Part shown: positions 31,316 to 59,066 of the stretch, piece after piece
How the letters are laid out: each line of letters opens with the position of its first letter
Numbering within the stretch: position 1 is the stretch's first letter
Virus record (IMG/VR): IMGVR_UViG_3300021142_002226
Coordinates: 96,001 to 160,000 of that record
Origin: a virus
Length of the DNA: 64,000 nt
Reading direction: 5' to 3' (one strand)
Program-made: the position numbers and the translations under genes
Notes under the pieces: model-generated
The model's input: only the letters and a program-made list of their open reading frames with translations
What the model was told of the DNA's origin: nothing
Database searches by the model: none

Positions 31316-32359
31316 ATGGATAAAAAAGAATTATTAATTGAGTATAGTAAATGTGTTGCTGACCCATGTTATGTTATTGAAAATTACTATGTAACATTCG
31401 ATAAAACAAGGGAAAGTTATGTCCCATTCAAATTATTCGAAAGACAAAAAGAGCTCATAAGAAACTATGAAGCTAACAGGTATAACATTGTCTTAAAATA
31501 CAGACAAGCAGGTATTACAACTGTAACTGCTGCTTATGCGGCGGTTAAAGCGGTAATGGCAAACGCTGAAAACCCTGAAAGAATATTGATTCTTGCTAAT
31601 AAGCAAGAAACGGCAATAGAGTTTCTTACAAAGATAACCGACTTTATTAAACAATCACCTAATTGGTTGTTGACAAATATCGGAACATTTAATAAAGAGG
31701 GTAAAATTGATTTTACAAAGGGTGCCTCTAAACACGTTAAGTTTAAAAATGGTTCTGAAATCAAAGCGGTTGCAACATCTAAAGATGCCTTGCGTGGTTA
31801 CACACCAACAATCATGATTCTGGATGAGGGTGCGTTCATTGAGGGTGGTCAAGAATTATGGTCAGCATGTCTGGCCTCAGTTTCAACAGGTGGTAAAGTA
31901 TATCTTATCTCAACACCTAATGGTATGGATGAAATATACTACGAAGCTTATGAAGGTTCTGTTGACGGTACAAACAAATTCAAAATTACAGCGATCAAAT
32001 GGTGGGAAGATCCAAGATATAACAAAGGTTTAAAAATGATAAAAACCGATGATATTATAAACTGGATTCAAAAACCTGAGGCAGAAAAAAATGAAGAGAT
32101 TCTCACAGACATTATTCCAGCTGAAGTAAATGGTGTCGTTAAGCCTGATTTATATAAACAAATCATGAATTATATAACACAAGGTTATCAACCACATTCA
32201 CAATGGTTTGAGAATATGTGTCGTGATATGAACTTAAATAAACGAATGATCAACCAAGAGTTGAATTGTGTTATAGGTCAAACAATGGTTACTATTAGGA
32301 ATAAAAATACTGGTATTATTGAGAATATATTGATTCAAGATTTAAATAGTAGACTCTAA
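31316..32359 (+). CDS. terL: Large terminase N-terminal fragment (ATPase) plus split-intein IntN
   Basis: CVADPCYVIENY, FKLFERQ, LKYRQAGITT (Walker A variant), ILDEGAF (Walker B), ISTPNG, WWEDP; ends QELN|CVIGQT... Confidence 0.93.
   Translation: MDKKELLIEYSKCVADPCYVIENYYVTFDKTRESYVPFKLFERQKELIRNYEANRYNIVLKYRQAGITTVTAAYAAVKAVMANAENPERILILANKQETAIEFLTKITDFIKQSPNWLLTNIGTFNKEGKIDFTKGASKHVKFKNGSEIKAVATSKDALRGYTPTIMILDEGAFIEGGQELWSACLASVSTGGKVYLISTPNGMDEIYYEAYEGSVDGTNKFKITAIKWWEDPRYNKGLKMIKTDDIINWIQKPEAEKNEEILTDIIPAEVNGVVKPDLYKQIMNYITQGYQPHSQWFENMCRDMNLNKRMINQELNCVIGQTMVTIRNKNTGIIENILIQDLNSRL
32267..32356 (+). mobile_element. Split intein N-fragment (30 aa) of TerL
   Basis: Block A CVIGQTMVTIRNKNTG followed by a stop after 30 aa. 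Confidence 0.9.
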
Positions 32360-32389
32360 CTTCTGATTAAATTTAAACTATTTATTATT

Positions 32390-33313
32390 ATGGAAATAAT
32401 TAATAAAACAAAAAAAGGTTGGATAACATCAAAAGCAAAAATAACAAGTGATATTTATGATAAAGATAAAACAATAAAAATATTAAAAGAAAATGATTTT
32501 TATTTATCGTTATTGGGTCGAGCAAAAAACAGAACACTAATAAAAAATGATAGTGTTTTATATAATTCTATATATGAGTATACCAAATCTCTGAATGATT
32601 TAAATAAAAATAATAATAAATTTTCTATCAGAATTTTATTTTTAGTGAAAGATAGTGGTGATATAGAAAGAATAAAATGTAAAAAATGTTTAAATAATTT
32701 AACATCATTTAATTATGAAAAAGGTTATTTTAATGAATACTGTTTAAATTGTTTTAATACAAAAAAAATTAAATACCCAAATATTGACTGGTTTAAAACT
32801 AAGTACTCATCTAATTGGGAATATTTCTATAAATTGGATCGTGAGAGAATTAAAAATAAAAAAGTTGGCAGTAAAGATTGGTATATTAAAAAATATGGCG
32901 AGTTAAATGGTACATTAAAATATGATAATGTTAAAGAAAACAGAATTAATAATCTAACTAATTTAATTGGTGTAAAATATTCTAAAATTTCACAAGAAAT
33001 ATTTTGGTTAATTTATAAAGAATTAACAGATGATGAAAAAAATAAATGTTATTTTAAAGAACTAAATCATGAATATTTCTTAAAAAACGGTAATTCTTGT
33101 TTTTTTATTGATTTTAAATGTGGTGATTTTGTCATAGAATATGATGGTGAATATTGGCATAAAAATAGAAAAGAATTGGATGAATTACGAAATGTGTTTT
33201 ATAAAAAAAATAAATTAAATCTTTTAATACTTAACGAAAAAGATTATAATAGAACAAACAAAAACGAAGACACAATCGAAAAATGTTTGGCGTTTATTAG
33301 AAATGAATATTAA
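32390..33313 (+). CDS. Free-standing homing endonuclease (Vsr/DUF559-like C-terminus) between the TerL halves
   Basis: YSKISQEIF...FIDF...VIEYDGEYWH...D..R; CxxC pairs; own TATTTAT at 32379. Confidence 0.8.
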   Translation: MEIINKTKKGWITSKAKITSDIYDKDKTIKILKENDFYLSLLGRAKNRTLIKNDSVLYNSIYEYTKSLNDLNKNNNKFSIRILFLVKDSGDIERIKCKKCLNNLTSFNYEKGYFNEYCLNCFNTKKIKYPNIDWFKTKYSSNWEYFYKLDRERIKNKKVGSKDWYIKKYGELNGTLKYDNVKENRINNLTNLIGVKYSKISQEIFWLIYKELTDDEKNKCYFKELNHEYFLKNGNSCFFIDFKCGDFVIEYDGEYWHKNRKELDELRNVFYKKNKLNLLILNEKDYNRTNKNEDTIEKCLAFIRNEY

Positions 33314-33629
33314 ATTAAATACTGAATATGAAGTCTTAACACCAAATGGTTTTAAAGATTTTTATGCAATAAAACAAATAAAAAAAACCTATTTGAAAAT
33401 ATCATTTAATAACGGTGAAGAAATAGGTATAACACCCAATCACATTTTTGTTATTAACAATGTTGAAATTTTAGCTAAAGATATTAAAATTGGTGATAAA
33501 TTACAAGGTATTCATGATGAATTAATAGTAATCTCAATTACACCTGTTGATGAATTTACAGATGTTTATGATTTAATAGAAGTGGATGGTGGTAATATAT
33601 ATTATACTAATAATATATTATCTCATAAT
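33303..33629 (+). mobile_element. Split intein C-fragment (109 aa) of TerL
   Basis: VLTPNGF, block B ITPNHIF, block F VYDL, block G SHN, with Cys at +1. Confidence 0.9.
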
Positions 33630-34535
33630 TGTGCTTTTATTGGTTCTGGTGATAACGTAATTGATGCGGCAATACTTGAAAAACAATTACAAATAAATGT
33701 ACAAGACCCAATAATTAAAGATTCAAGATGGGATAGTACATTATGGATATGGAAATATCCTGAGGAAGGTCACAGATACATTGGTGCCCTTGACGTATCC
33801 AGAGGAGATTCCGAGGACGCTACTGGATATAGTATTATCGATTTTGATACTTTTGAACAAGTTCTTGAATACCATGGTAAGGTTCCACCTGACGTTGCTG
33901 CGATAATTGTTGAGCAATATAGTAAAATGTATAATGCATTAACCACTTTCGATATAACTGGTGGTATGGGTATAGCCGCAATCAATAAGCTGAAGGAAAT
34001 GAATTTTCCATCTAAACTTTATCATTACGATGATGATAACGATTTAACATTATTTTATGGTGCGGACTCAGACAAAACACCTGGAATCAACTTTGCTTCA
34101 AAAAATAGACGTGTACAAATAGTACAGGCTCTCGAAGAAGCTGTATGTCGTGGTGGGTTTAAAATTAGAAGTGTTAGATTAATAAACGAATTGAAAAAAT
34201 TTGTATTCAAGAACGGTAAACCTGATCATATGAAAGGTTCACATGATGACCTTATCATGGCCTTGGGTATGTGTTTGTTTGTCGCAAATACCTCTTTCAA
34301 AAGATTATCTGAAAATACTTCTACAACAAAAGCTATGTTAGATAGTTGGAAAGTTCAAACTAATAGCATCCAATCAACAGCCGCAAATATGATAAATGAT
34401 ATTAATACGTTAGTCAGTAACGATAAAATTTATGATAATCAGGGTATTTATAGTAATAAAGAAGAAATATTACAAAATACTCGTGACTTTTCTTGGTTAT
34501 TTGGTAATATTAATAAATATAACCCTCAAAATTAA
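33303..34535 (+). CDS. terL: Split-intein IntC plus large terminase C-terminal nuclease fragment
   Basis: IntC ends ILSHN|CAFIGSG; RNase H-like motifs YIGALDVSRG, HDDLIMA. Confidence 0.93.
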   Translation: MNIKLNTEYEVLTPNGFKDFYAIKQIKKTYLKISFNNGEEIGITPNHIFVINNVEILAKDIKIGDKLQGIHDELIVISITPVDEFTDVYDLIEVDGGNIYYTNNILSHNCAFIGSGDNVIDAAILEKQLQINVQDPIIKDSRWDSTLWIWKYPEEGHRYIGALDVSRGDSEDATGYSIIDFDTFEQVLEYHGKVPPDVAAIIVEQYSKMYNALTTFDITGGMGIAAINKLKEMNFPSKLYHYDDDNDLTLFYGADSDKTPGINFASKNRRVQIVQALEEAVCRGGFKIRSVRLINELKKFVFKNGKPDHMKGSHDDLIMALGMCLFVANTSFKRLSENTSTTKAMLDSWKVQTNSIQSTAANMINDINTLVSNDKIYDNQGIYSNKEEILQNTRDFSWLFGNINKYNPQN

Positions 34536-34540
34536 AAACT

Positions 34541-34762
34541 ATGAGTAGACAGTTATTTTCAAGGTTTAACACAGCAGGTGCTGTAAGACAAAGCGTTAAT
34601 AGTGCAACAAAAAGTGAAGCTACAAACGTAAATAAAAAGGCTACTTTGGTTTGTTCTAATTATGATGACCCATTTGTAAATTATGCATATGACGCACAAT
34701 GGAATATTAAATTACAACGCCAAGTACATAACCCAGTATTCGAATGTGGATACGTTGAATAA
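34541..34762 (+). CDS. Small hypothetical protein
   Basis: 73-aa ORF between terL and the portal gene. Confidence 0.5.
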   Translation: MSRQLFSRFNTAGAVRQSVNSATKSEATNVNKKATLVCSNYDDPFVNYAYDAQWNIKLQRQVHNPVFECGYVE

Positions 34763-34771
34763 TCTAAACAT

Positions 34772-37579
34772 ATGGCAAATTTTACAGTATTTCAAAAATT
34801 AAATAAAGTTTTAGGTAATGAATTAGAATCACCTAAATATACCATTGACCCAAATTCATTCAAGAATCTTGACGATCAGGAACTCGAAATGAAACGACTT
34901 GAGGCACAGCAGGTCATCTATTTACAGAATCAGTGGAAAAAAATTGATAACGAATTATATCAAAAAGCTGTTTATTACGAACCAACCAGAATCGCATCAT
35001 ATTATGATTACGAAGCAATGGAGTTTTGTTTGGCTGGAGAGACTAAAATAGCAACACCAAGCGGATTCATAACCATAGAAGAGTTAGCTAAAAAGGGTAG
35101 GGAGAATGAATTTATTGTTTATTCCTATGACCATAATACTAAAAAAGTTGTACCAGCATGGGCTAAAAACGCACACCATACAAGAGATGAAGTGACATAT
35201 AAGGTTATTTTTGACGATGATTCTTATATTATTGGTACTTTTGACCATAAATTAATGAAAAGAGATGGTAGTTTTTCAAAAATTTCAGAATTAAAAGAAG
35301 GGGATTCTATGATGCCTTTCTATAGAAAATCTTTTTATAATAACCAAAAATATAATTGGGTTTATACTTGTAATTCATTAGAAGGTTATAATGGTTGGGT
35401 ATCTGAACACAATTTAATTGCTGAGTGGTTCTATGAGACTAAAATTAATGAAGATGAAGAGGTTCACCATATAGATTTTAATGGTAAAAACAATTCCCCT
35501 GAAAATTTATCTATTATGAAAATATCTGAGCATAGAGCATACCATGCGAGATTAAATAATAGTAAGCTTTGGGTAAATGAGGAATATAGAGCAAAAATGC
35601 TTGAAATAAGTAAAAGAACAGATAATAAACACAAATGGAATGGTGCAAGAAGTGGTAAGAATAATCCAGCTTATTTTAAAATACCTTTTGATTTAATTAT
35701 TGAAACAGCAAAAAAAATTAAAACACTTAAAGGTACGGCGAAAGAGTTAAATATTTCTCACACAAAATTACAAAGAGAAATAATGATGGCTGGATATAAA
35801 GACTGGAAAACATTTTGTCATGCATATAGTATAGAGTTATCTAAATACTCAACAGCAACCGTTAAAGGTGAACAATATGTTCTGAATCATAAAATTAAAT
35901 CTATTGAACCATATAAAGTTATACCAGTATATGATTTGACAGTACCAGGGTATAAAAATTTTGCAACAGATACAATATTTTCACATAATACTCCAGAAAT
36001 TGCTGCTGCGCTTGATATATTTTCTGAGGAGGCAACAACACCTAATGAAAGTGGTAAAATTCTAACAGTATATTCGGAAAGTAATCGTATCAAAGACGAA
36101 TTAACAGACCTTTTTGATAATGTAATCGATATCAATTCAGTTATCACCAGCTGGGCAAGAAACCTATGCAAATATGGTGATAATTTTTTATATAACAAGG
36201 TTATTCCAGGTAAAGGTATTGTGGGTGTAACACAATTACCAAACATCGAAATCACAAGAGCTGAACCAGGTTTCTCAAAAGTTATGAGTATGGATGATTT
36301 CCAAAAAGAAAAGAATGTTAAATTCTTTTGGAAGGAAAAACAACTTGATTTCAACTCATTTGAGATATCTCACTTCAGACTCATGGGTGATGATAGACGT
36401 TTACCTTATGGTACAAGTATGCTCGAAAAAGTTAGAAGAATTTGGAAACAATTACTTTTAGCCGAAGACGCTATGCTTGTTTATCGTGTTACCAGAGCCC
36501 CAGAAAGACGTGTTTACAAAGTTTATGTAGGTAATATGGATGAAAAAGACATCGATGCTTACGTAGATAAAGTCGCTAATAACTTCAAAAGATCAAATTT
36601 GGTAAACTCATCAAACGGACAACAAGATACCAGATATAATGCTATGGCCGTGGATCAAGACTTTTTTATCCCAACCAGAGACCCTCAATTACCAATGCCA
36701 ATTGAAACATTACCAGGAGCTCAAAATCTTGGGGAAATAGCTGATATTCAATACATTCAAAATAAAATGTTGGCTGCTCTAAGAATCCCTAAAACGTTCT
36801 TAGGTTTTGATCAAGCTGTTGGTGACGGTAAAAACCTATCCATTCTTGATATACGTTTTGCAAGAGCTGTTTATAGATTACAAAGATCTATAATACAAGA
36901 GTTAAATAAAATGGCAATCATCCACCTTTATGTTAAAGGTTATGAGGATGATTTACATAATTTTACTCTATCTTTATCTAATCCTTCCACCCAAGCAGAC
37001 ATGCTTAAAATCACTAACTGGCAAGCTAAAATACAACTTTACAAAGACGCTGTTACAGATCTTGGTAATGGTTTTGGGCCTGTATCACAAACTTGGGCTA
37101 AGAAAGAAATTCTTGGATTCAGTGATGATGAAATTAAAATTGATGTTCAAAGACAAGTTGTGGAAAAAGCAGCCTCTGAAGAACTTAAAATGTTGGGTGA
37201 AACAATCAAACAAACAGGTATGTTTAGAGATTTGTATAAATTATACAAGATTGATCCTAACAATATGGGACAAGCGCCTGCTGAAAACCAACAACAAGAA
37301 ACTCCTCCAGGCGGCGGAACAGGTGGTGGTGTAGCTCAAGATTTCACAGCACCACTCGAAGGTGGAACAACCCCTGAAATTGGTGGAACGGAAACAACAC
37401 CAGAAGCTGGTGCTGCACCAGAGGCTGGCACGGCTGAAACCCCAATGCCAGGTACGCCAGGTGAAGAAACACAATTACAAGAAAATATGGTAAAAAGGAT
37501 GTTATTGAATAGAAGACAGTCAATAAGTGAAAATATTTCCAAAACTTTGGATGATATTGACAAAATGTTAAACGAATAA
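34772..37579 (+). CDS. gp20: Portal protein (T4 gp20-like) with an intein
   Basis: YEAMEF|intein|TPEIAAALD, RLPYGTSMLE, YRVTRAPERRVY, DFFIP, L..ALRIPK. Confidence 0.93.
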   Translation: MANFTVFQKLNKVLGNELESPKYTIDPNSFKNLDDQELEMKRLEAQQVIYLQNQWKKIDNELYQKAVYYEPTRIASYYDYEAMEFCLAGETKIATPSGFITIEELAKKGRENEFIVYSYDHNTKKVVPAWAKNAHHTRDEVTYKVIFDDDSYIIGTFDHKLMKRDGSFSKISELKEGDSMMPFYRKSFYNNQKYNWVYTCNSLEGYNGWVSEHNLIAEWFYETKINEDEEVHHIDFNGKNNSPENLSIMKISEHRAYHARLNNSKLWVNEEYRAKMLEISKRTDNKHKWNGARSGKNNPAYFKIPFDLIIETAKKIKTLKGTAKELNISHTKLQREIMMAGYKDWKTFCHAYSIELSKYSTATVKGEQYVLNHKIKSIEPYKVIPVYDLTVPGYKNFATDTIFSHNTPEIAAALDIFSEEATTPNESGKILTVYSESNRIKDELTDLFDNVIDINSVITSWARNLCKYGDNFLYNKVIPGKGIVGVTQLPNIEITRAEPGFSKVMSMDDFQKEKNVKFFWKEKQLDFNSFEISHFRLMGDDRRLPYGTSMLEKVRRIWKQLLLAEDAMLVYRVTRAPERRVYKVYVGNMDEKDIDAYVDKVANNFKRSNLVNSSNGQQDTRYNAMAVDQDFFIPTRDPQLPMPIETLPGAQNLGEIADIQYIQNKMLAALRIPKTFLGFDQAVGDGKNLSILDIRFARAVYRLQRSIIQELNKMAIIHLYVKGYEDDLHNFTLSLSNPSTQADMLKITNWQAKIQLYKDAVTDLGNGFGPVSQTWAKKEILGFSDDEIKIDVQRQVVEKAASEELKMLGETIKQTGMFRDLYKLYKIDPNNMGQAPAENQQQETPPGGGTGGGVAQDFTAPLEGGTTPEIGGTETTPEAGAAPEAGTAETPMPGTPGEETQLQENMVKRMLLNRRQSISENISKTLDDIDKMLNE
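35027..35989 (+). mobile_element. Contiguous intein (321 aa) with an HNH endonuclease
   Basis: CLAGET...TFDH...VHHIDFNGKNNSPENL...VYDLTV...FSHN|T. Confidence 0.92.
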
Positions 37580-37623
37580 AACCTTTTACCAAAAAAACAA
37601 ATATTTATTTAAAACAATCAAAT

Positions 37624-38334
37624 ATGTTCGGTCTACTTAAAGAAAATATTATCAATAATTTAGAAAAAGTCTATCTTGAGAAAGGAGAAAAAGACTTCAA
37701 AAAAGGATTCAATGCGTTTATGAAAACAATTAAAGAATCTAAAGATCTAAAACAAATATATAACATATATTCTTTATATGAGAATATTCATTTTGATAAT
37801 GAGGTTATTGCAAGAGAATTTGTAAATGAATCAATTAATCAGTTAAAATCATATGACAAGTCTAAATTAAATGACTTAAAGACTTTGACTGAAACATATG
37901 AAAATTTACCTAAAAACTCAAGATATTTTTACTTAGATGAATTGGCCTTCAACGATAAATTATCTTTAAAGAACAAAGTTGAATATAAAGTGGCGTTAAT
38001 TAACTCATTAGTTAATGAAACCAAAAACAATGAAAATTTGATCAATCTTATCAATAATGCTGATAAAATTAATGAAAATTTAAATACCTTAAGTGAAGCC
38101 CAAGTCGAAGCTATAAGTATTTTAGCTGAAAATGATAAAACTAAAGTTAATGAATATTATACCAATTTGATTAACGAAACACAAGAACTTTTGGATAACA
38201 AAATCATTGAATCTAAGAAAGAAACTGAAGCTGTAGTTAAATTGGTGGAGGCTAAGAAAAAACTTAAAGCTATTTCCAAGGAAGCTAACGTAAATAATAT
38301 TGAATTAATTTTAGATTTAAAGTCAATCCTATAA
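37624..38334 (+). CDS. Hypothetical head-region protein
   Basis: TATTTAT at 37602; helical 236-aa ORF. Confidence 0.55.
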   Translation: MFGLLKENIINNLEKVYLEKGEKDFKKGFNAFMKTIKESKDLKQIYNIYSLYENIHFDNEVIAREFVNESINQLKSYDKSKLNDLKTLTETYENLPKNSRYFYLDELAFNDKLSLKNKVEYKVALINSLVNETKNNENLINLINNADKINENLNTLSEAQVEAISILAENDKTKVNEYYTNLINETQELLDNKIIESKKETEAVVKLVEAKKKLKAISKEANVNNIELILDLKSIL

Positions 38335-38413
38335 GAAAAAATTTGGTTTTATCATTTTATTTTATTACTTTTATTTTAAATAATAAAAATTTAAATAAAA
38401 TGATTAAAATCAA

Positions 38414-38851
38414 ATGTTTTGCAAATTCGGCAAAGAAAGAAAGTTATTTACTAACACAAATTTCAGAGTTAAATATGGGACTATAGATGCCCTTAAACTC
38501 AATTCAATATACATAGATATTGAATCCTGGGTTCAGCCAAAAGAACCCTTAAGCTACGAATCTTATATTCGTTTAATGCGAAGACAAGTTATTCTTTCGC
38601 TCAATAATGAACTTGATTCAAATTTTTTCAATCAAAACTTTATTGTTGATCTTGATTTAAGAGCATCAGGAATGGATCCAAAAAGGAAATCATTCATGTT
38701 GCTCGAAGTTACTTTATACCCCAAAATCAAACCTAAATTCACATCAAAAGAACTTAATCAAAAGGTTGAAGAAGTAACAAATGTTATAATCAATACACTA
38801 CAAAAAAATAAATTCAATTTTAACTCCAAAAAAAATGAACGTAATAAATAG
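38414..38851 (+). CDS. Hypothetical protein
   Basis: 145-aa ORF. Confidence 0.55.
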   Translation: MFCKFGKERKLFTNTNFRVKYGTIDALKLNSIYIDIESWVQPKEPLSYESYIRLMRRQVILSLNNELDSNFFNQNFIVDLDLRASGMDPKRKSFMLLEVTLYPKIKPKFTSKELNQKVEEVTNVIINTLQKNKFNFNSKKNERNK

Positions 38852-39776
38852 CGATTATATGGACATTGATCTAAATGAAAATCTCATTAATGAAATCATA
38901 ATTGAAAATCATTCAGATCTATCTAAGATTGGCGAAAACATGGAAACCTGGTTTTCTATTAATAATAAAGATTATTTCTTCAATTATAGAAGTATACCTA
39001 AATTACCATCTGGCCTATATTCTATCGTATTTACTGAAGCAAATGGTTTTGGATTATCTAAAATGGAATATAAATCTGAAGATTATTTTGTATTACCCTC
39101 GTTACCCCACGAAGAAATTATCTCAGATATCAAGAAATTTTGGGATAGTAAAAAGAACTATGAAAAATACAATCTTACTACTAAGAGAGGAATAATTTTG
39201 CATGGTGATCCAGGTGGTGGTAAAACATCCCTGATTTATCTTTTGATTGAAGAAATGAAGAAATATGATGGTATTTCCATATATTTTGATTCACCAAAAA
39301 CCTGGATTGAGATAGCTAAACTTATTCGTAAAATTGAACCAGACAGACCAATATTGTGCATTATTGAGGATATTGACGGTGTAATTGAAAATAATGGTGA
39401 AGAAATATTTTTAAATTTCCTTGATGGTCTAAACTCCGTATCAAATATTGTTTATGTTGCAACAACCAATAATTTAAGGGAAATACCAGATAGGATAAAG
39501 AATAGACCATCACGTTTCGATAAAAAATATGAAGTAAAAAAACCAACAGATGAAGATAGGTTAATATATTTCACCAGAATGGTTTGTGAAGAAGATAAGG
39601 ATATCTATGACCTTAAAAAACTTGCAAAGGACACGAAAGACTTGAGCATGGCTCATCTTAAAGAATTATTCATATCATTATACATATTCAAGAATGATTA
39701 TGCAAAGAGTCTACAAGATATAAAAAAGGGTAATATAATAGAAAAATCTATTGGGTTTGGCAGAAATGATGACTGA
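38835..39776 (+). CDS. AAA+ ATPase
   Basis: GDPGGGKT, IIEDID, ATTN, NRPSRFD. Confidence 0.9.
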   Translation: MNVINSDYMDIDLNENLINEIIIENHSDLSKIGENMETWFSINNKDYFFNYRSIPKLPSGLYSIVFTEANGFGLSKMEYKSEDYFVLPSLPHEEIISDIKKFWDSKKNYEKYNLTTKRGIILHGDPGGGKTSLIYLLIEEMKKYDGISIYFDSPKTWIEIAKLIRKIEPDRPILCIIEDIDGVIENNGEEIFLNFLDGLNSVSNIVYVATTNNLREIPDRIKNRPSRFDKKYEVKKPTDEDRLIYFTRMVCEEDKDIYDLKKLAKDTKDLSMAHLKELFISLYIFKNDYAKSLQDIKKGNIIEKSIGFGRNDD

Positions 39777-39829
39777 AACCATCTTTTAATACAATCTTAA
39801 ATATTTATAATTGAAATATTATATTTATT

Positions 39830-41532: not shown

Positions 41533-41556
41533 GAAAGTTTAAAAACTTTTTTTTAT

Positions 41557-50092: not shown

Positions 50093-50138
50093 AATCTTTT
50101 TATTTTAAAAATAAAAAGATATCAACCAAAGTAAAGTA

Positions 50139-50300: not shown

Positions 50301-50301
50301 A

Positions 50302-50541
50302 TTAATATTGTACGTATTTGTTTAATAATTCTATTTGTTTTCTTTTTTGTGCAAAGTTTGGATTTTCATCCAAAAAAATACCCAATTCATCTTCCGATGC
50401 TTTTTCAGCTATTATATCATATTCATCATCGGATATACGATAATAACTTTTAATAACATTATCAAAAGCATCAAAAATACCTCCACGACATAAAAGTCCC
50501 ATATATGAAGGATCTAAATTTCTTCTATTAATTCTACTCAT
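50302..50541 (-). CDS. Hypothetical protein
   Basis: Part of a coupled minus-strand run. Confidence 0.5.
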   Translation of the reverse strand: MSRINRRNLDPSYMGLLCRGGIFDAFDNVIKSYYRISDDEYDIIAEKASEDELGIFLDENPNFAQKRKQIELLNKYVQY

Positions 50542-50764
50542 TTTTATAGATTATAATATGATTATATATGTTTAATATATCTAATGTTATTTCAAACGAA
50601 GGTTTACGGTTATCTTCATATCGATCCCAATTAATATTTAGTTTTAAAAATGTGATACCGTCTTTTAAAGACCTAATAGGTGCTAATAACTGATACTCAA
50701 AAAAGTATTTTCTACTTATAGCAAAATATCCGCAAAACCCAATAAATTTTTTACCAAACCTCAT
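50534..50764 (-). CDS. Hypothetical protein
   Basis: Part of a coupled minus-strand run. Confidence 0.45.
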   Translation of the reverse strand: MRFGKKFIGFCGYFAISRKYFFEYQLLAPIRSLKDGITFLKLNINWDRYEDNRKPSFEITLDILNIYNHIIIYKNE

Positions 50765-50773
50765 ATTGTTATA

Positions 50774-51037
50774 TTATTCAATATTAAAAGTTATATTACC
50801 ATCTTCTATTTTGGTTACCACACGTTTTTGATTCACTATCTCACATTCCTGTCCAGCACCGTTAACTAAAGCTTCCTTTGCCATTTGTTTAAATTCAAGT
50901 GCTATTGTATCTAACATCACTTCTAATAAACCCATCGCTCTCATGTCTGACAAATATTCATCAATAAATGTTTGCTGAAAAGTTAATTGTTTCATTTCTC
51001 CCTGTGGAGTTTCGATTTTTTTAATTTGTATTTTCAT
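50774..51037 (-). CDS. Hypothetical protein
   Basis: Part of a coupled minus-strand run. Confidence 0.5.
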   Translation of the reverse strand: MKIQIKKIETPQGEMKQLTFQQTFIDEYLSDMRAMGLLEVMLDTIALEFKQMAKEALVNGAGQECEIVNQKRVVTKIEDGNITFNIE

Positions 51038-51042
51038 AAAAT

Positions 51043-52251
51043 TTAATTTGATAATGGCGCTTTAATTGCTGGATGTGATTGATAATTTTCTACTCTGAAA
51101 TCATCAGGATCTAAATGACCAAATAACGATATGTGGTTTGATAAAGATTCAAAAAACGCTGGAGTTTTACCAGTTATTAATTTCGGTAATGGATATGGTT
51201 CTCTTGTATAATACGGTATTTTAAACGATTCGAAATACTCACTCATACCACCGCCAAACGGCATTAAATCTGAAACAGCATCTTTATACTTTTCTTCACC
51301 CATTGCTGTTTTCAACATTTCTGTTCTTTCTTCTATACTAATTTTTTTACCAATTTGTTCTTTCGCTTGTTCAATGTGATTCGAATAAAGATGAGTATCA
51401 CCCAAGTTTCCAATCAATTCATCAGGAACCATGTTAACCATTTTTGCAATTATTTCAAGTAATAAACCATATGAAGCAATGTTAAATGGTAAACCTAAAA
51501 ATGTATCCACGCTACGCTGATTCCACATTAATGAAATTGCTCTGGTTGGGATATTATATTTAATATAATCTTCTTCTGATATTGCAGTCATTTTTCTTTT
51601 CTTTGCCGCACATAAATCATATCTCTCATCATCATTTAACTCCCTTGTATAAAATTGGAAAAAGTTATGACATGGACGAAGTACCATCTGGTCGAGTTCT
51701 CCTACGTTCCATGCTGATACAATTATACCCCTATCATCTGGGTTTGTTTTAAGTTTATTAATTACTTCTGCAATTTGATCAATATTGCCATTCCAATTAC
51801 GCCACTGATGTCCATAGATAGAACCCAAATCACCCCACTTCTTAGCAAAATCATCATCAGTTTTGATTTGGTTGATGAATTCTACCATTGTCATTAATCT
51901 CATGCAATTCTGATTTGGGTCATCTATATGAATATTATAATCTGGCTCTTCCATAGAGCCTGCAATTTTGCAATAATTCTTATAAGCGTCACCGTTCCAT
52001 ATATGACAATCGTTTTCTAAGAGATACTCTATTGATGTATCACCTTTTAAAAACCACAATAGTTCGGTTACTACACTTTTAAAGTGAATTTTCTTTGTGG
52101 TGAGCAGTGGAAATTTTCCGTCTTTAAATTTGTACTTAATTTGTCTACCAAAAACACTTAACGTCCCTGTACCAGTCCTATCTTTTTTCTCCACGCCATT
52201 TTCTAAAATGTCTTTTAATAGAGCTTGATAATCTAAATCTAATTGATTCAT
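51043..52251 (-). CDS. thyA: Thymidylate synthase with insertions
   Basis: RTGTGT, PLLTTKK, IYGHQWR, SAWN, PCH, QRSVD, LPFNIASY, GDTHLY. Confidence 0.95.
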   Translation of the reverse strand: MNQLDLDYQALLKDILENGVEKKDRTGTGTLSVFGRQIKYKFKDGKFPLLTTKKIHFKSVVTELLWFLKGDTSIEYLLENDCHIWNGDAYKNYCKIAGSMEEPDYNIHIDDPNQNCMRLMTMVEFINQIKTDDDFAKKWGDLGSIYGHQWRNWNGNIDQIAEVINKLKTNPDDRGIIVSAWNVGELDQMVLRPCHNFFQFYTRELNDDERYDLCAAKKRKMTAISEEDYIKYNIPTRAISLMWNQRSVDTFLGLPFNIASYGLLLEIIAKMVNMVPDELIGNLGDTHLYSNHIEQAKEQIGKKISIEERTEMLKTAMGEEKYKDAVSDLMPFGGGMSEYFESFKIPYYTREPYPLPKLITGKTPAFFESLSNHISLFGHLDPDDFRVENYQSHPAIKAPLSN

Positions 52252-52472
52252 AATATTATAAATTTAAAATTAATTCCTTTATTTATTACAGATTCTCTTT
52301 TAATAATATTTTTTTCTTTTTCTTTATTAAATGTATATGTTATTATACATCCTTTATTTTTATTATATCTTTTTATAGTAAGAATACCTTCTGATATTCC
52401 TTGATATGTTCCTCTACCAAAAACCTTAATTATTTTCTTTTTCAGTTTACGAGGTAATTTATTTTTATTCAT
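52248..52472 (-). CDS. Basic hypothetical protein
   Basis: 74-aa ORF. Confidence 0.45.
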   Translation of the reverse strand: MNKNKLPRKLKKKIIKVFGRGTYQGISEGILTIKRYNKNKGCIITYTFNKEKEKNIIKRESVINKGINFKFIIL

Positions 52473-52475
52473 AAT

Positions 52476-52835
52476 TTAATATCTTTTTTCTTTCCATTCA
52501 TCATCTGCTTGATTCTCAAGTTTTGTAACTATTTCATATGCCATTTTTGCTGTTGGTATTTTAACATCGACATTATAAGCAATTATTCCTATAGAAACAA
52601 GTAATAATCTAAAAAGTCTTCGTGGTATTTCTAAAGTTTGTGGCGAATCATATGGAATATTTTGCGCCTCTGGATTATTGGATGTGAAGTATAATCCAAA
52701 AAAAAATGGTTTAATTATATTTGCTAATTCAATAAACCGTTCTTTAGAAACTCTTTCAAATTCTTTTCTTGATGCGGAATCTACCCATGTATGAACAGAA
52801 GCCCATTCTTCTTTTGTTAATGTTACCTTTATCAT
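52476..52835 (-). CDS. Hypothetical protein
   Basis: 119-aa coupled ORF. Confidence 0.5.
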   Translation of the reverse strand: MIKVTLTKEEWASVHTWVDSASRKEFERVSKERFIELANIIKPFFFGLYFTSNNPEAQNIPYDSPQTLEIPRRLFRLLLVSIGIIAYNVDVKIPTAKMAYEIVTKLENQADDEWKEKRY

Positions 52836-53143
52836 AATTTAATATATTCAATTTTCTTTATATCATTCGGTGGTATATAATCTGTAACAAATTCAAAATC
52901 TGATTTAATTGGAATACCAGTTGATGTATAAATGTGAGGCTCAACATTATGTGTGTCAATATATATTATAGCAATTTCTTTCCAATGATTTCTACCTAAT
53001 TGGGTATCTATTATTTTCCATATGTCATTAGTTAAAAATACTTTTTTATATTTTATACTACCAATTCCTTTTTTATAATCTGGTTTTAATCCTTCAATTA
53101 AAATATTGGATATATTTTCAGGTTTAGTGATATGATATAACAT
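52832..53143 (-). CDS. ADP-ribosyltransferase-fold protein (Tpt1/KptA C-domain or DUF952-like)
   Basis: LYHIT..NI..IL.EGLKP...VFLT...EFVTDYIPP..I. Confidence 0.65.
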   Translation of the reverse strand: MLYHITKPENISNILIEGLKPDYKKGIGSIKYKKVFLTNDIWKIIDTQLGRNHWKEIAIIYIDTHNVEPHIYTSTGIPIKSDFEFVTDYIPPNDIKKIEYIKL

Positions 53144-53157
53144 TTATTTATATTTTA

Positions 53158-53406
53158 TTATTGAGATGATAAAGTACCTAATTTTTTATATTTGTATTTT
53201 GGCATCTTTTTATCTTTAACAAATGATAGCGCCCAACAATCTTTGGTTGTCCAATACCCTTGAGATTTACAAAAGGTTTTTGCTTCTTCTTCTGATTTGG
53301 TATAAGAGTGATATTCATACCCAAAGGCATCACGATTTTCCAATGGGTCGATCCAAGCTTTTAAAATTAAGAAAATATCTTCAGTATTATCTAATTTTTT
53401 ATTCAT
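53158..53406 (-). CDS. Hypothetical protein
   Basis: 82-aa ORF. Confidence 0.5.
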   Translation of the reverse strand: MNKKLDNTEDIFLILKAWIDPLENRDAFGYEYHSYTKSEEEAKTFCKSQGYWTTKDCWALSFVKDKKMPKYKYKKLGTLSSQ

Positions 53407-53408
53407 AA

Positions 53409-53612
53409 TTAAAAGTATATTTTATCTATGTAATAGTTATCATTGTTATATCCATATTTTTCTCTGGCTTCTTGAGCTTCTTGTTCAGATTTGTATGGTG
53501 CAAGTATTACATTATTTATCGCACTACCATGTGCTGGTACCTTTTCATACACAGCATATTGTGGATAATTTTCCTGAATAAATGCTTTATAACTTGAATT
53601 AACATTGTTCAT
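53409..53612 (-). CDS. Hypothetical protein
   Basis: 67-aa ORF, first gene after a host-type promoter. Confidence 0.5.
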   Translation of the reverse strand: MNNVNSSYKAFIQENYPQYAVYEKVPAHGSAINNVILAPYKSEQEAQEAREKYGYNNDNYYIDKIYF

Positions 53613-53616
53613 AGAA

Positions 53617-53648
53617 CAAATATACGAAATAATTTTGAATAAAACAAA
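53617..53648 (-). promoter_or_regulatory. Bacteroidetes-type promoter
   Basis: Minus strand TTTG(53648-45)-N20-TATATTTG(53624-17). Confidence 0.65.
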
Positions 53649-53923
53649 TTAAATTCCGTAATTAGCTCTTTGAGCATTAAAGTTTTGTGAAATTTCTGTG
53701 GCAGATAAGCCTCTGTTATACATTTGTATTGCACCCATGTAACCTTGATATAGCGCACCACTTCCACTATATCTACCTAATATACCAAACTTGGGTCAAC
53801 ACCTGACCAATAATCTGTAGTAACAGTTGGGCCATAAGCAATAGTATCGGTACCCAATAAAACATTACCTTTTTTTATTGTACCTGTTAAAGAAGTTGCT
53901 GAATATTTTACTGCATTACCCAT
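53649..53923 (-). pseudogene. Internally deleted, frameshifted paralog of the neighbouring LamG gene
   Basis: Frame 1: MGNAVKYSATS...GPTVTTDYWSGVDP. Frame 2: ...MYNRGLSATEISQNFNAQRANYGI*. These match the two ends of 53941-54966. Confidence 0.8.
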
Positions 53924-53940
53924 GTTAATAAATATTAACT

Positions 53941-54966
53941 TTATATACCAAATCTCGACCTCTGAGCATTGAAATTTTGACTTATTTCTGTTGATGATAA
54001 TATTCTGTTATATACCTGACATATTGCTATTCTACCAGGAAAAAAATTGGATGTGCCACCACCAGGGCCTCCAAGTCTTATCAAACCAATACCCAAACTA
54101 ACACCAGTTGAAGATTGCTCAACAATTGCTGAATTTGATTGGGTTGTTGTGGTCGACCCATTAAGATAAAATATGGCTGTTTTGGTACTTGTATTCCATG
54201 TTACACAAACATAATTCCAAGTATTTAACGTTAATGCTGTACCTGTATCAACTAAATCTTTATTAGCGTGAGGCCAGAACTGTAATTTATTACTACTGTT
54301 TAACCAAAAACCCCATCCCCCATAAGCTGATGATCCTCCGCTACCTGTATTATCATATTCTTTATCAATAATTCCAGCAACACCACTTGGTGATGATGTG
54401 GGATATATCCATGCACACGCTGTTTTATTGGCAACATCCACACCAAGATTATTTGAACCAAAATTTATATAACTTGAAGCACCATCAAAAGATAAATAAC
54501 CACCATTACCAGAGTTCCAAGTTGGTGAATTTGTTAAAGTACCAGAAATATTACCTCCAGAAATATCCCACCAAGAATTACCATTTTGAGGATATGATTG
54601 TATAAAACCTGAATCAATGTTAAAAACAAGTCCGCTTGTTACAATATTTTCATATAATCTATTTGTCACAAGGATATTTGATTGCGTTTCAAAATAATTT
54701 AACGCACCATTAAATGTTGTTATCCCAGAGCCACCAAGTTGGTTGGCCAAAGTTACAATTTGAGTTGAATCTACATAATATATTCTTGGGGCACCAGAAG
54801 TCCCAACAAAATAATAAATACAATAATTTGAACCTGGATTAACCGCAGTCCAAAAATCTGTTGTACTTGTTGGCCCATACTGAACTTGATTTGCACCAAT
54901 TGCAACATTATTAGCTCTTAATGCATTCGAGGGTGTTGTTGTTGAATATTTTATACCATTATCCAT
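53941..54966 (-). CDS. LamG/concanavalin-A-like virion protein
   Basis: SYPQNGNSWWDISG, FDGASSY, WIYP, WNYVCVTW, YLNG, VYNRILSSTEISQNF. Confidence 0.85.
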   Translation of the reverse strand: MDNGIKYSTTTPSNALRANNVAIGANQVQYGPTSTTDFWTAVNPGSNYCIYYFVGTSGAPRIYYVDSTQIVTLANQLGGSGITTFNGALNYFETQSNILVTNRLYENIVTSGLVFNIDSGFIQSYPQNGNSWWDISGGNISGTLTNSPTWNSGNGGYLSFDGASSYINFGSNNLGVDVANKTACAWIYPTSSPSGVAGIIDKEYDNTGSGGSSAYGGWGFWLNSSNKLQFWPHANKDLVDTGTALTLNTWNYVCVTWNTSTKTAIFYLNGSTTTTQSNSAIVEQSSTGVSLGIGLIRLGGPGGGTSNFFPGRIAICQVYNRILSSTEISQNFNAQRSRFGI

Positions 54967-55005
54967 AAATTATCTTTATCTTATGAATAAATATCCATGA
55001 AATTA

Positions 55006-55251
55006 TTAAATTACAGCATTCCAAACTGAGGTACCTAATATAGGTAAAATTTCATCATATGTATATACGCCAACTATTGTTGTCATATCAGATAAAAATC
55101 CTGGAACATCACCATCATACTTCATCAAAACCAAAGTTCCATCAAGTGATTTTCTTATAGTTTCATGACTGTCCTCAAGAATTTGATTGAAATCAATCTT
55201 ATCAAGCTCAGAAGCTGAAAATATTACGAAATTTCTATTACTATAATCCAT
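55006..55251 (-). CDS. Small virion-associated protein
   Basis: 81-aa ORF upstream of the LamG gene. Confidence 0.55.
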   Translation of the reverse strand: MDYSNRNFVIFSASELDKIDFNQILEDSHETIRKSLDGTLVLMKYDGDVPGFLSDMTTIVGVYTYDEILPILGTSVWNAVI

Positions 55252-55268
55252 ATGTATAAATATCCGTA

Positions 55269-55442
55269 TTATTGGGTTAATTTATCCAATTCGGATGACA
55301 AATCCCTCAATTCCTTTTCAATTTTTGCTTTTTCCAATAAAAGACGATTAAGTTCCTCTTTATCATGTTTACTCAAACCGTCCTCATGTTCAAGGATATT
55401 ATCAATCTGTTGGGTAATTTTTTTTAAAATATCTTTAATCAT
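55269..55442 (-). CDS. 57-aa coiled-coil protein (not in the ORF track)
   Basis: MIKDILKKITQQIDNILE...ELDKLTQ; abuts the upstream stop. Confidence 0.5.
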   Translation of the reverse strand: MIKDILKKITQQIDNILEHEDGLSKHDKEELNRLLLEKAKIEKELRDLSSELDKLTQ

Positions 55443-55443
55443 A

Positions 55444-55923
55444 TTAAATATTATTTAATGTTTTGATTATTTTATTTTTGATACCATCTTGTTTTATACC
55501 GTCATTATCTTTCGAACAAATTACAAAATGGTCGGTTAACCATGTCTTCATATCAAGGTCGTCAATTGCTACCCATGGTTCATTAATATTATGCACATTT
55601 AACCACTGATTGATTTCTTGTGCACGATTAAATTCGAGGGTAGTTGCAACACTATTATTGAATGTACCTGTGAAACCTATCGGTTGTTTAATCACACCTT
55701 GCCAAGAGTACATTTCCCTCATCATAGGTAAAGATAAATCGTATTTCCAATCAGAAGATACAACTATTTCAGCATCAGGTACTTCTATTAAAATTTCATT
55801 TAATATTTGTACACAACCCTTATCAAAATAATCAACATCATATTTGTTTGGTCTTTTCGCTCTTGAACCCCATTGCGGTTGAAGACACATCACGCCATCA
55901 TGATCAAGAAATATTAGTTTCAT
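55444..55923 (-). CDS. HAD-domain protein (HAD_SAK_2, RNA-repair-associated type)
   Basis: IFLDHDGV, IVVSSDW, EI..WL, VAIDD, DGI. Confidence 0.75.
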   Translation of the reverse strand: MKLIFLDHDGVMCLQPQWGSRAKRPNKYDVDYFDKGCVQILNEILIEVPDAEIVVSSDWKYDLSLPMMREMYSWQGVIKQPIGFTGTFNNSVATTLEFNRAQEINQWLNVHNINEPWVAIDDLDMKTWLTDHFVICSKDNDGIKQDGIKNKIIKTLNNI

Positions 55924-56159
55924 TTTTTTCTAAATGTAAATTTTTTATTTATATTTTTGTTAAAGTGTTTACCCTGGCTTTCTGCCATGTCAAACTCCGT
56001 AAATGTTTTATGGTCTACATTATCATATTCATAAGTTGAACCATTACTAAACGTAATTTCGAGTAATTTAGACTCAATATCATATTGAGCTTTATGAATA
56101 TTTGAAGAGTCATATTCACATAAGATTTTAGTACCTAAGATAGCTTTTGATTTATTCAT
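55920..56159 (-). CDS. KTSC-domain protein
   Basis: SSNI..AQYD....LEITF.NG.TYEY..V...F..AESQGKHFN.NI. Confidence 0.9.
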   Translation of the reverse strand: MNKSKAILGTKILCEYDSSNIHKAQYDIESKLLEITFSNGSTYEYDNVDHKTFTEFDMAESQGKHFNKNINKKFTFRKK

Positions 56160-56230
56160 AACAATATTTATTTTATATTATTACAAATATACTAAAAAAA
56201 GCGGATAAAAACAATTTTTGATAAAAACAT

Positions 56231-56261
56231 TTTGTTGTTTCGGAAATTATTATTACATTTG
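56231..56261 (+). promoter_or_regulatory. Bacteroidetes-type promoter for the clpC N-half
   Basis: TTTG(56231)-N19-TACATTTG(56254-61). Confidence 0.7.
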
Positions 56262-56279
56262 TATAAAATCAAATTATAG

Positions 56280-57056
56280 ATGCAAGAAAAAATGAGCAAC
56301 GAGCTGAGGATAGCTTTTCAAAAGGGTTATAAATCAGCAATAATTTTAAATGATAGTCTAATTAGAATTGAACACGTTCTGTACGGTATACTCACTACAA
56401 ACAATATCATCAGTGAAATAATTAGTAAAAAACTTGAGGATTTTGATGTTTTCATAAATGACATTGAAGATCATAACAGAAGTATATCGGAAGATATTGA
56501 CCCAGAATTAAGGACAGAAAAAGTTCTTAATTTCGAAGATTCTCTTAAGGTATTGGTAAAAAAATGTGCCCAAAAATCTAATGATGCAATTACAGTCAAC
56601 ACATTTTTTATGAGTTGTTTTGATCTCGATAATCAAATCATCAAAATAATGAACGAATACGGTATAACAAAATCATTTATGCAAAGAAGACTTAAACAAC
56701 TAACACCAACTGCCTCTACATTCCCACTCGATGAAAACTTCGAAAAGAGATATGATGGCAATAATTCAAATAGACAAAAATCTAAAACCCCAGTTTTGGA
56801 TAACTTCAGTCGTGATTTAACCATTCTTGCAACTGAGGGTAAACTCGATCCTGTAATTGGTAGAGAAGCTGAAGTTGAACGTGTTGCCCAAATCCTCACC
56901 AGACGCAAAAAGAACAACCCAGTTCTTATTGGTGATCCAGGTGTTGGTAAATGCTATATTAAAGAAACTAATATATGTTTACGAAATGACCTAACTGGTG
57001 AAATTTTTAGTATATCAGTCAATGATTTTTTAACATCGCTTACCGATGCCAAGTAA
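56280..57056 (+). CDS. clpC: ClpC-type AAA+ ATPase N-fragment plus split-intein IntN
   Basis: Clp-N (EHVLYGIL), [39 protein letters not shown]|CYIKET... Confidence 0.93.
56952..57053 (+). mobile_element. Split intein N-fragment (34 aa) of ClpC
   Basis: [26 protein letters not shown], then a stop. Confidence 0.88.
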
Positions 57057-57111
57057 TCTTTTTTTTAAATAATTGATTTACTTTCTTAATTTTTATACTA
57101 TTTATTGTGGT

Positions 57112-58566
57112 ATGAGAATTGTAACAAAAAAAGAAAGTTTTGATTTTAAAGAATATTTTAAAACTGTTAATGATTTAAAAACATTTATCAAAGAAAATAA
57201 TGAATTTGTAAATGTTGAAGGTATTGGTGAAAAGATAGGTAAATTATATGATGATTTATCCGAATTAGATATTTCTTTAAAATCATCGGTTTTACCTGAA
57301 AGATTAATTTATTATCTTGGTTTTAAGAATAGGTCAGCATTTAAGTTGGATTTTTGGTTGGAGCGTGGTAATACTATAACCGAATTTAATACTTGGTTAT
57401 TAAAAAGGAGAAATATTGAACCAGTTAAATCTTTGGAATGTGGTAACGTAAATAAATTCGAATACGGTGAGTTTAAATTTACGTTTGATGGTAGACCAGT
57501 TTGTAATTTATGTAAATCCGATTTAACATTTGATGTTTTAACCGATAGGTATGTGATAAAAAATTGTCAAAATGATGGTTGTCCAACACACAAAAATCAA
57601 GATCAATACTTCATAAGGCAACTGGCTTATTTGCCTATTGATATTTTTAAAAATAAAAATAAGAGAACTAACATAGAATCGAGGATTCATCCTTATTTTT
57701 GGTTGTTGTCTGGTTTAACTTATGATGAGTCGTTGAAAAAATGTGAAGAGATAAAAACCACACTTAAAAATAAAATAAAGGGGTCAGATGAATATTATAA
57801 GATTTTATTTGGTTTGACTGATGAAATGGCTTTAGATAGGGCTTTAGCACCAACTCAAATTAGGTTTTGGGTTAATAGGGGTTTTTCGGAGGAGGATGCT
57901 AAGATCAAAGTGTCTGAAAACCAAAAGAATGCGGCTAAATCTGTTGATTTTGAGAAACGGTTATTACCATCAAATATTGAGTATTGGATTAAAAGGGGTT
58001 TAACGGAAGATGACGCTAAGGTTGAAGTATCTAATCATCAGAGGACGTTTACACTTCAAAAATGTATTGATAAACATGGTGAAGGAACTGGTAACCTTAT
58101 CTATACTAAACGACAAGTTAAGTGGCAAACTTCATTAATTGAAAATGGGAATTTAAAATGTGGGTTTTCAAGAATATCACAAGAATTATTTTATCGACTA
58201 TTAGACGAATATTCATTTAAAGAAAAAATTGACGTTTTTTTTGCTACAAAAAATAAAGAATATTTTATATCTTTAAAGGGTGGTGAATTTTATCAATATG
58301 ATTTTGTTGATAGGAATAAAATGAAAATTATCGAATTTAACGGTGACTGTTATCATGCAAACCCAATTAAATATAATGAAAATGATAAGCCCAATCCGTT
58401 TAGACAAAACCTAACAGCATCAGATATATGGGCTAAAGATAAAAGAAAAACGGAAGTTGCTATTGAAAACGGTTTTCAGCTCTTAACAATATGGGAATCG
58501 GAGTATAAAAAGAATAAAGAGTTAACAATAAAAAAATGTTTGGATTTTTTGGAAATCCGAGAATAA
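57112..58566 (+). CDS. Free-standing homing endonuclease (Vsr-like C-terminus) between the clpC halves
   Basis: Start reassigned to ATG 57112, behind TATTTAT at 57099; FSRISQELF...YDF...IIEFNGDCYH...D..K...TIWESE; W..RG.sEE repeats. Confidence 0.8.
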   Translation: MRIVTKKESFDFKEYFKTVNDLKTFIKENNEFVNVEGIGEKIGKLYDDLSELDISLKSSVLPERLIYYLGFKNRSAFKLDFWLERGNTITEFNTWLLKRRNIEPVKSLECGNVNKFEYGEFKFTFDGRPVCNLCKSDLTFDVLTDRYVIKNCQNDGCPTHKNQDQYFIRQLAYLPIDIFKNKNKRTNIESRIHPYFWLLSGLTYDESLKKCEEIKTTLKNKIKGSDEYYKILFGLTDEMALDRALAPTQIRFWVNRGFSEEDAKIKVSENQKNAAKSVDFEKRLLPSNIEYWIKRGLTEDDAKVEVSNHQRTFTLQKCIDKHGEGTGNLIYTKRQVKWQTSLIENGNLKCGFSRISQELFYRLLDEYSFKEKIDVFFATKNKEYFISLKGGEFYQYDFVDRNKMKIIEFNGDCYHANPIKYNENDKPNPFRQNLTASDIWAKDKRKTEVAIENGFQLLTIWESEYKKNKELTIKKCLDFLEIRE

Positions 58567-58579
58567 ATAACTAAATTTG
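58548..58579 (+). promoter_or_regulatory. Bacteroidetes-type promoter for the clpC C-half
   Basis: TTTG(58548)-N20-TAAATTTG(58572-79). Confidence 0.6.
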
Positions 58580-58586
58580 CAAAAAA

Positions 58587-59066
58587 ATGACAATGAATTA
58601 CTACGAATTTTATGAACAAGAGTCGTTGGCTCAGTTAGATAAGGATTACCCAAATGAAGAGGGGCATAAAAAATTCACCAAAACTTGGAATATCGAAAAT
58701 TTTAGTGTTTTAACGGACAATGGATTTCAAAAAATTGATAAACTACATGAAACAATATCGTACAATGTTTATCATTTAATATTGGATAATGGATTTGAAC
58801 TTAAATGCGCTGATAACCATATTGTTATGTTACCTCGTATGGTTAACATGGTAAGACAACTCGATAATATGAGTGAATCGACAGAACCTATTGAATGTTA
58901 TGTTAAAAATTTGAAACCAGGTGACTTAGTTCATACTAATGATGATATTGGTTGTGCCTCTGTTGTATCCGTAACCAATCTTGGATATCAAGAGAATATG
59001 TATGATTTGCAATTATCAGACGATTCTAACCACAGATATTACACTAATGGTATATTGAGCCATAAT
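58587..59066 (+). mobile_element. Split intein C-fragment (about 160 aa) of ClpC
   Basis: VLTDNGF, block [22 protein letters not shown], with Thr at +1. Confidence 0.88.

Follow-up and report, generated by a model that had tools for sequence, protein, structure and literature searches.

The DNA analysed here, a 64,000-nucleotide window that spans bases 96001-160000 of the IMG/VR virus record IMGVR_UViG_3300021142_002226 (190,177 bp, ~64% complete, ~30% G+C), derives from a T4-like jumbo phage and contains two unrelated genes that are each fractured by a split intein. The first is terL, the gene for the large terminase subunit, at 31316-34535 on the + strand, which belongs to a + strand block with the genes for the portal and the major head protein and consists of two open reading frames (ORFs), 31316-32359 and 33303-34535. 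The second is a clpC-like gene at 56280-60857, also on the + strand, which is the first of a later + strand block that follows a divergent intergenic region (56160-56279) and likewise consists of two ORFs, 56280-57056 and 58587-60857. In both genes, the parts succeed each other on one strand in the same order (Table 1): an N-extein with a short N-terminal intein fragment (IntN), a free-standing gene for a predicted Vsr-like/EDxHD homing endonuclease (HE1 in terL, HE2 in clpC), and a long C-terminal intein fragment (IntC) with the C-extein. A preliminary description of this DNA had claimed that the genome carries two related split inteins, and this is borne out, with every peptide that it quoted found on the + strand where it had been placed. 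Beyond that description, the ORFs between the intein halves turn out to be homologous endonuclease genes, and the record as a whole holds three fractured genes (terL, the clpC-like gene and an RNR-like gene, the last with a canonically split intein) as well as three contiguous inteins.

Table 1. Parts of the two fractured genes, in window coordinates
Feature	Coordinates	Strand	Supporting match
TerL N-extein (ATPase part), ends ...NQELN	31316..32266	+	Pfam Terminase_6N, PHROG terminase large subunit families
TerL IntN, 30 amino acids from Cys1, and stop codon	32267..32359 (IntN 32267-32356)	+	end-to-end alignment with CatN of 6DSL
HE1, predicted free-standing Vsr-like/EDxHD homing-endonuclease gene, 307 amino acids	32390..33313	+	homologous to HE2, family profile
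TerL IntC, 109 amino acids, ends SHN	33303..33629	+	PDB 6DSL_B (CatC), E 3.2e-15, full length
TerL C-extein (nuclease part), starts with Cys+1 (CAFIGSG...)	33630..34535	+	Terminase_6C, PHROG 2
ClpC-like N-extein, ends inside Walker A (...GDPGVGK)	56280..56951	+	PHROG 4871, ATP-dependent protease
ClpC IntN, 34 amino acids from Cys1, and stop codon; D1-class motif RNDLTGE	56952..57056 (IntN 56952-57053)	+	
HE2, predicted free-standing Vsr-like/EDxHD homing-endonuclease gene	57073..58566	+	PHROG 22677, family profile
ClpC IntC, 160 amino acids, ends SHN	58587..59066	+	6DSL_B, E 9.3e-8; ClpC-D1 clade of the family tree
ClpC-like C-extein, Thr+1 (TAIVEGLA...) completes Walker A	59067..60857	+	Pfam AAA_2, AAA_lid_9, ClpB_D2-small, UVR

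Removal of the intein leaves an intact host in both cases, to the base in clpC by comparison with the gene of a relative, and in terL as judged from the two pieces, which cover adjoining parts of PHROG 2 (258-435 for the N-piece and 452-597 for the C-piece); the ClpC C-extein contains the remainder of the first ATPase domain (D1), the UVR/M-domain and the second ATPase domain (D2). Both inteins possess the residues of class 1, namely, Cys1, a block-B His, a terminal His-Asn and Cys, Ser or Thr at +1: the TerL intein combines Cys1, TPNH in block B, a terminal SHN and Cys+1, and the ClpC intein combines Cys1, ADNH in block B, with the Thr-to-Ala change that most of the family shows, a terminal SHN and Thr+1. 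Compared with its TerL counterpart, the ClpC IntC has an N-terminal extension of ~30 amino acids and an insertion of 17 amino acids. The genes are tightly packed. In terL, 30 nucleotides separate IntN from HE1, and the HE1 and IntC ORFs overlap by 11 nucleotides (33303-33313), with the start codon of the IntC-TerL-C ORF embedded in the last codons of HE1 and overlapped by the HE1 stop; in clpC, the spacers amount to 16-55 nucleotides before HE2 and 20 nucleotides after it. HE2 encodes 497 amino acids from the TTG at 57073, or 484 from the likelier start, the ATG at 57112, and a relative has a 483-amino-acid ORF in its place.

The similarity between the two inteins extends over both halves: 11 of 30 IntN residues are identical (37%, BLASTP E 2e-5), as are 39 of 128 IntC positions (30%, with 33 gap columns, E 8e-10), or 32% of the IntC core. 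Because of these E-values, and because each intein piece, when searched against the 190-kb record, matches only its counterpart, the likeness is attributable to homology rather than chance; the earlier statement that the halves align closely is thus right about the relationship but too strong about its closeness. The further observation that both inteins are split just after block A holds, in that both IntNs stop where CatN of PDB 6DSL does, after motif N1/block A, and the fragments occupy separate ORFs (IntN/IntC of 30/109 amino acids in TerL and 34/160 in ClpC). The best PDB match of both IntCs is 6DSL, the consensus atypically split TerL intein Cat; CatN is also the top, albeit weak (E 1.4), PDB match of the TerL IntN, and the ClpC IntN by itself has no PDB match. 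By sequence, both inteins are members, distant from each other, of the known atypically split AceL-TerL/GOS-TerL/Cat family. TerL is the host of the first intein but not of the second, which sits in the first Walker A of the ClpC-like ATPase, and a TerL host is a trait of the described members of the Cat family, not of the fold.

With GOS-TerL, AceL-TerL and Cat, for which a review gives IntN/IntC lengths of 37/115, 25/104 and 30/104 amino acids, respectively, the inteins described here share a long IntC and a short IntN limited to motif N1; the TerL intein also shares the phage TerL host and, with AceL-TerL in particular, the Cys1/Cys+1 pair, and its insertion site, NQE../C..F.GS (the slash marks a splice junction), is that of loci with the Ser1/Cys+1 combination reported for GOS-TerL. 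Both also differ from these three, the TerL intein by grouping with those of two relatives (loci L007 and L008, discussed below) at a tree distance of at least 1.8 from the other members, and the ClpC intein by its host, its Thr+1 and its 160-amino-acid IntC with extra segments. The inteins PolB16 OarG (8CPN) and VidaL (6VGV) resemble them in having a short IntN and in a weak sequence match to the ClpC IntC (E 0.002-0.3), but represent other families, with IntNs of 15-16 amino acids and other hosts and nucleophiles. The arrangement of both loci is that of the fractured genes of Dassa et al. 2009 (PMC2677866), in which gp41-1, NrdJ-1, IMPDH-1, terminase and others are interrupted, half of the loci contain Vsr-like endonucleases, and one terminase is split after motif N1, an unusual point, with a C-part of 122 amino acids: in each case, the N-extein and IntN are followed by a short spacer, a same-strand free-standing endonuclease, and the IntC with the C-extein. 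ClpC, however, is outside the eight host types of that study (0 mentions), which also differs from the present case in that three fractured genes reside here in one genome, with relatives that have an empty site and decayed endonucleases. A literature search found no paper on split inteins in ClpC, and ClpC as a host seems to be undescribed in the searched literature, yet common in metagenomes. The TerL and ClpC inteins are, then, genuine but distant relatives of each other within an established family, and the arrangement of their genes is likewise a known one.

How far the family reaches is apparent from the databases. At least 294 loci in IMG/VR encode relatives, as detected by an alignment-based scan (a single-sequence scan with the ClpC IntC gave no match there), and 566 database proteins have a related IntC at their N-terminus, joined to ClpC sequence. 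The insertion sites include, in ClpC, the P-loops of D1 and D2 and, in TerL, the P-loop, Walker B and the NQE../C.F.GS site occupied in the window, along with further ATPases and helicases; the members are mostly split, with a few contiguous ones among them. Some hosts are broken more than once: L025 (5040-10735) and L031 are three-piece ClpC genes with an atypically split intein in each Walker A, the IntCs being 66-69% identical, and in L066, L079, L069, L091, L094 and L099, TerL is distributed over three or four ORFs by inteins of this same family at the P-loop, Walker B and NQE sites. Several of these loci have features of their own. The second gap of L025 also holds a DNA methylase gene and a 113-amino-acid endonuclease remnant, one gap of L079 contains a GIY-YIG-like ORF instead of a Vsr-like one, and L099 includes a Ser1/Cys+1 intein of the GOS-TerL type; in L030 and L047, an IntC of the family, ending in HN and followed by Cys+1, interrupts the first ClpC P-loop at a position that lies two residues upstream of the customary one. 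Four proteins (P0032, P0072, P0109 and P0117; 660-673 amino acids) have ~260-270 amino acids in frame before a ClpC D2-site IntC, a stretch that could be an endonuclease fused to IntC.

The endonuclease genes form a family as well. HE1 and HE2 share a C-terminal domain (E 2e-7, 29% identity), and HE3, from the RNR-like locus, is a third paralogue, with a weak match to TIGR00632. As single sequences, HE1 and HE2 have no match in Pfam, NCBIfam or PDB; a profile built from 18 inter-fragment ORFs, in which a D...E.DG..H core is conserved, matches the Vsr endonucleases 1VSR, 1CW0 and 1ODG in PDB at E ~7e-6 and I-Bth0305I (3R3P) at E 3.8e-5. Homologous ORFs of the HE2 type fill 40 of the 46 long inter-fragment gaps in related loci. 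The profile match and the conserved core place the HE family with I-Bth0305I among the EDxHD/Vsr-like endonucleases, but I-Bth0305I resides in a group I intron of recA, whereas HE1 and HE2 stand free between the halves of an intein, with extended, unrelated N-terminal regions.

Two relatives bear on the history of the fractured genes: G002, a 39-kb record with the loci L007 (terL) and L019 (clpC), and G001, a complete 321-kb genome with the terL locus L008. The clpC gene of G002 is an uninterrupted frame of 820 amino acids with exteins 99% identical to those of the window. The empty site is exact, and the additional DNA of the window is 56952-59066 (2,115 bp), which begins at the codon for Cys1 and ends at that for the terminal Asn. 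Over the flank 55502-56951, which takes in the N-extein, DNA identity with the uninterrupted L019 gene is 99.5%, and synonymous divergence (dS) from G002 is 0.007 in the 5' flank of clpC and 0.13 in the 3' flank, a contrast that indicates a recombination breakpoint at the insertion site and would fit homing. Circumstantially, the breakpoint and the precise vacancy of the site in a relative that is 99% identical predict that HE2 would cleave intein-free clpC. The clpC gene of G001 is likewise uninterrupted; an NCBI assembly has the identical three-ORF clpC layout, and the ClpC IntC alleles of other phages are 57-81% identical. A megablast search of 24 kb against the phage collection gave no match.

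In terL, the same relatives present a different picture. Both L007 and L008 retain the split intein, including a conserved IntN, and HE1 survives only as a 3' remnant, with window bases 32366-33108 of the HE1 region missing from L007 and a larger loss in L008. The retained 3' end (L007:3807-4000; L008:3895-3931) includes the overlap with the IntC start codon, and was kept perhaps because the translation start signals for the TerL C-half reside there. Between the window and L007, the ratio of nonsynonymous to synonymous divergence (dN/dS) is 0.3-0.5 for the TerL intein (0.30 for IntC) and ~0.02 for the exteins (0.018 for the N-extein), which places the intein, on this measure, under purifying selection; indirectly, this selection, together with TerL being essential, predicts that the intein splices. 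The region 28548-35025 shows fine-scale mosaicism against L007, with near-identical stretches alternating with ~15%-diverged patches, one of which (33386-33635) is limited to the latter half of the TerL IntC. L008 also contains, at 3932-6313, an additional contiguous LAGLIDADG intein in TerL-C (junctions GSHDD/C and VHN/CIMALG), which the window lacks.

These observations can be assembled into one account, to which we assign a probability of roughly 0.7: both genes are fractured genes whose products would be joined by trans-splicing, the cassettes would spread by endonuclease homing, and the two intein pairs would be largely orthogonal in the cell. Under this scheme, the ~30-residue IntN would dock into the incomplete IntC, bringing the two polypeptides together, and class 1 trans-splicing would proceed via a thioester at Cys1, transfer to Cys+1 in TerL or Thr+1 in ClpC, and cyclisation of the Asn at SHN. 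The products would be a TerL in which the ATPase is joined to the nuclease and a ClpC in which the Walker A motif GVGKT is restored. The endonuclease would cut intein-free alleles of co-infecting relatives, with the proposed consequence that IntN, HE and IntC are copied in together as one cassette; in clpC, this cassette would represent a recent gain or a polymorphism, and the terL split would be older, persisting while its endonuclease decays in relatives.

Cross-talk between the two pairs is a legitimate question because genuine related split inteins sit in two unrelated genes of one phage, and the preliminary description had framed it as a choice between orthogonality and exchange of exteins. 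In an IntC tree of 120 sequences, the ClpC IntC falls in the D1 clade (support 0.90), which is nested with D2, and the TerL IntC joins L007 and L008 far from the rest, the distance between the two being 3.3 substitutions per site. Pairs of inteins of this family that co-reside in other phages have 21-69% IntC identity; within single essential TerL genes the IntC cores are 21-32% identical, and within single ClpC genes, 66-69%. By this comparison, the pair in the window (32% in IntC and 37% in IntN) is as diverged as pairs that coexist in single TerL genes. The D1 inteins, furthermore, have marks of their own: position 13 of IntN is Asp in all 23 D1 (ClpC-N) fragments and Lys in nearly all other members, with Leu at 14 and a hydrophobic residue at 19, and in IntC, Ser takes the place of Glu in column 14, and Lys that of Asp in column 23 and of Ala in column 26. 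The ClpC intein of the window has the D1 state and its TerL intein the common state, and the TerL IntN is on average closer to the D2 IntNs (39% identity) than to the D1 IntNs (31%). Because the D1 swaps are present in the ClpC intein and not in the TerL intein, we lean toward orthogonality, and the TerL and ClpC pairs are probably orthogonal. With less conviction, and at somewhat below even odds, we suggest that the D1 swaps (IntN K13D, x14L and hydrophobic 19; IntC E14S, D23K and A26K) might constitute a natural specificity code. Such a code would have evolved because many phage ClpCs hold a second intein of the family, 66-69% identical, at D2; the ClpC D1 and D2 inteins share the same GVGK/.../T junction. 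A broader role of K13/E14 as a general determinant of orthogonality was considered and rejected, since co-resident TerL inteins share K13/E14.

Several points weigh against this account, and most of them speak for the competing possibility that the TerL and ClpC pairs cross-react appreciably, giving rise to TerL-N/ClpC-C and ClpC-N/TerL-C chimeras or to tolerated dead-end complexes. The two inteins come from the same family, are split at the same point, and have many IntN positions in common (C1, T6, R11, N12, T15, G16, I18, I22 and D25); according to a review, GOS-TerL and AceL-TerL can exchange their IntN fragments, and in a 24x24 matrix, cross-talk was concentrated among inteins split atypically with one short fragment. 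The D1 signature may stem from a single ancestral event and might then be neutral rather than a specificity code, and the empty site and the breakpoint are compatible with either direction of change in clpC, gain here or loss in the relative. Nevertheless, appreciable cross-reaction appears unlikely, given that identity is just 30-37%, that the ClpC IntC has its extension and insertion, that class-specific swaps set the D1 inteins apart from all others, and that there are multi-fractured, essential TerL genes with pairs no more diverged than that of the window.

Cross-talk could also be avoided mainly by timing, in which case specificity of the intein halves would be unneeded because clpC and terL would be expressed at different stages. 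The placement of terL in the head-morphogenesis block and of clpC at the head of its own block after the divergent intergenic region would accommodate such a separation, and the preliminary description had suggested a host-type promoter for clpC and a late one for terL. That suggestion found no support: sigma-70-like sites number 22 near clpC and 34 near terL, against 29.8 and 34.7, respectively, expected from shuffled sequence, a search for the T4 late motif found no TATAAATA directly upstream of terL, and the sigma-70, terminator and T4-late-motif scans together gave nothing above chance near either gene, so that the promoter argument has been dropped. Considering, in addition, that related phages have inteins of this family in one gene, where they necessarily act together, timing as the main safeguard is quite improbable. 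Still less probable is a reading in which recent insertion of the clpC cassette simply broke an accessory gene, with an intein that splices poorly or not at all and halves that are decaying: the nearest relatives do have an intact clpC, ClpC is not an essential phage gene, and the block-B Thr is replaced by Ala (CADNH), but all nucleophiles and the SHN end are intact, both ORFs are open, CADNH is the fixed state in hundreds of members from the D1, D2 and TerL P-loop sites, and D1-site alleles also occur in phages whose ClpC exteins are just 55-79% identical, with all ATPase motifs kept. A recent origin of the clpC cassette by copying of the resident terL cassette was considered and dismissed in view of the 30-37% identity and the tree distance between the inteins, and also in view of the endonucleases, which differ in length and share only the C-terminal domain.

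The record contains further inteins besides the two discussed above. The RNR-like gene, at G000:C1:53130-58513 on the - strand, ~37.5 kb before the window, has two contiguous LAGLIDADG inteins and a third one that is canonically split, with an IntN of ~111 amino acids, an IntC of 34 and the 341-amino-acid Vsr-like HE3 between the halves. The portal gene (34772-37579, + strand) contains a contiguous intein of 321 amino acids with an HNH domain at 35027-35989 (junctions ...AMEF/C and SHN/TPEI); L007 and L008 lack this intein, and the empty site there is exact. Thymidylate synthase (51043-52251, - strand; 402 amino acids) is ~100 amino acids longer than its PHROG profile; the match takes up positions 29-307 of the 335 in the profile and spans the entire protein, which is suggestive of inserted segments, and no intein signal was found in it.

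Taken together, these findings predict that the DNA-packaging motor, TerL, and a ClpC-like unfoldase of one phage each depend on an intein to stitch two gene products together. For protein semisynthesis and labelling, split inteins whose IntN is no larger than a peptide are highly valued, and characterised natural examples are few; the locus adds to this family a TerL member and a ClpC member, the latter with Cys1/Thr+1. Along with its relatives, it provides a natural series on the origin and persistence of fractured genes, comprising the empty site, the full cassette, the cassette with a decayed endonuclease, and contiguous alleles. It also points to natural genes that would need two or three split inteins of this same family at once, by which the encoding of orthogonality becomes directly testable. 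If the D1 swaps do amount to a specificity code, the phage would hold a ready-made orthogonal pair of split inteins with IntNs of ~30 amino acids, and the family, whose insertion sites number at least six and some of whose host genes are divided into three or four pieces, would amount to a natural library for ligating multiple fragments in one pot by means of peptide-sized IntNs.

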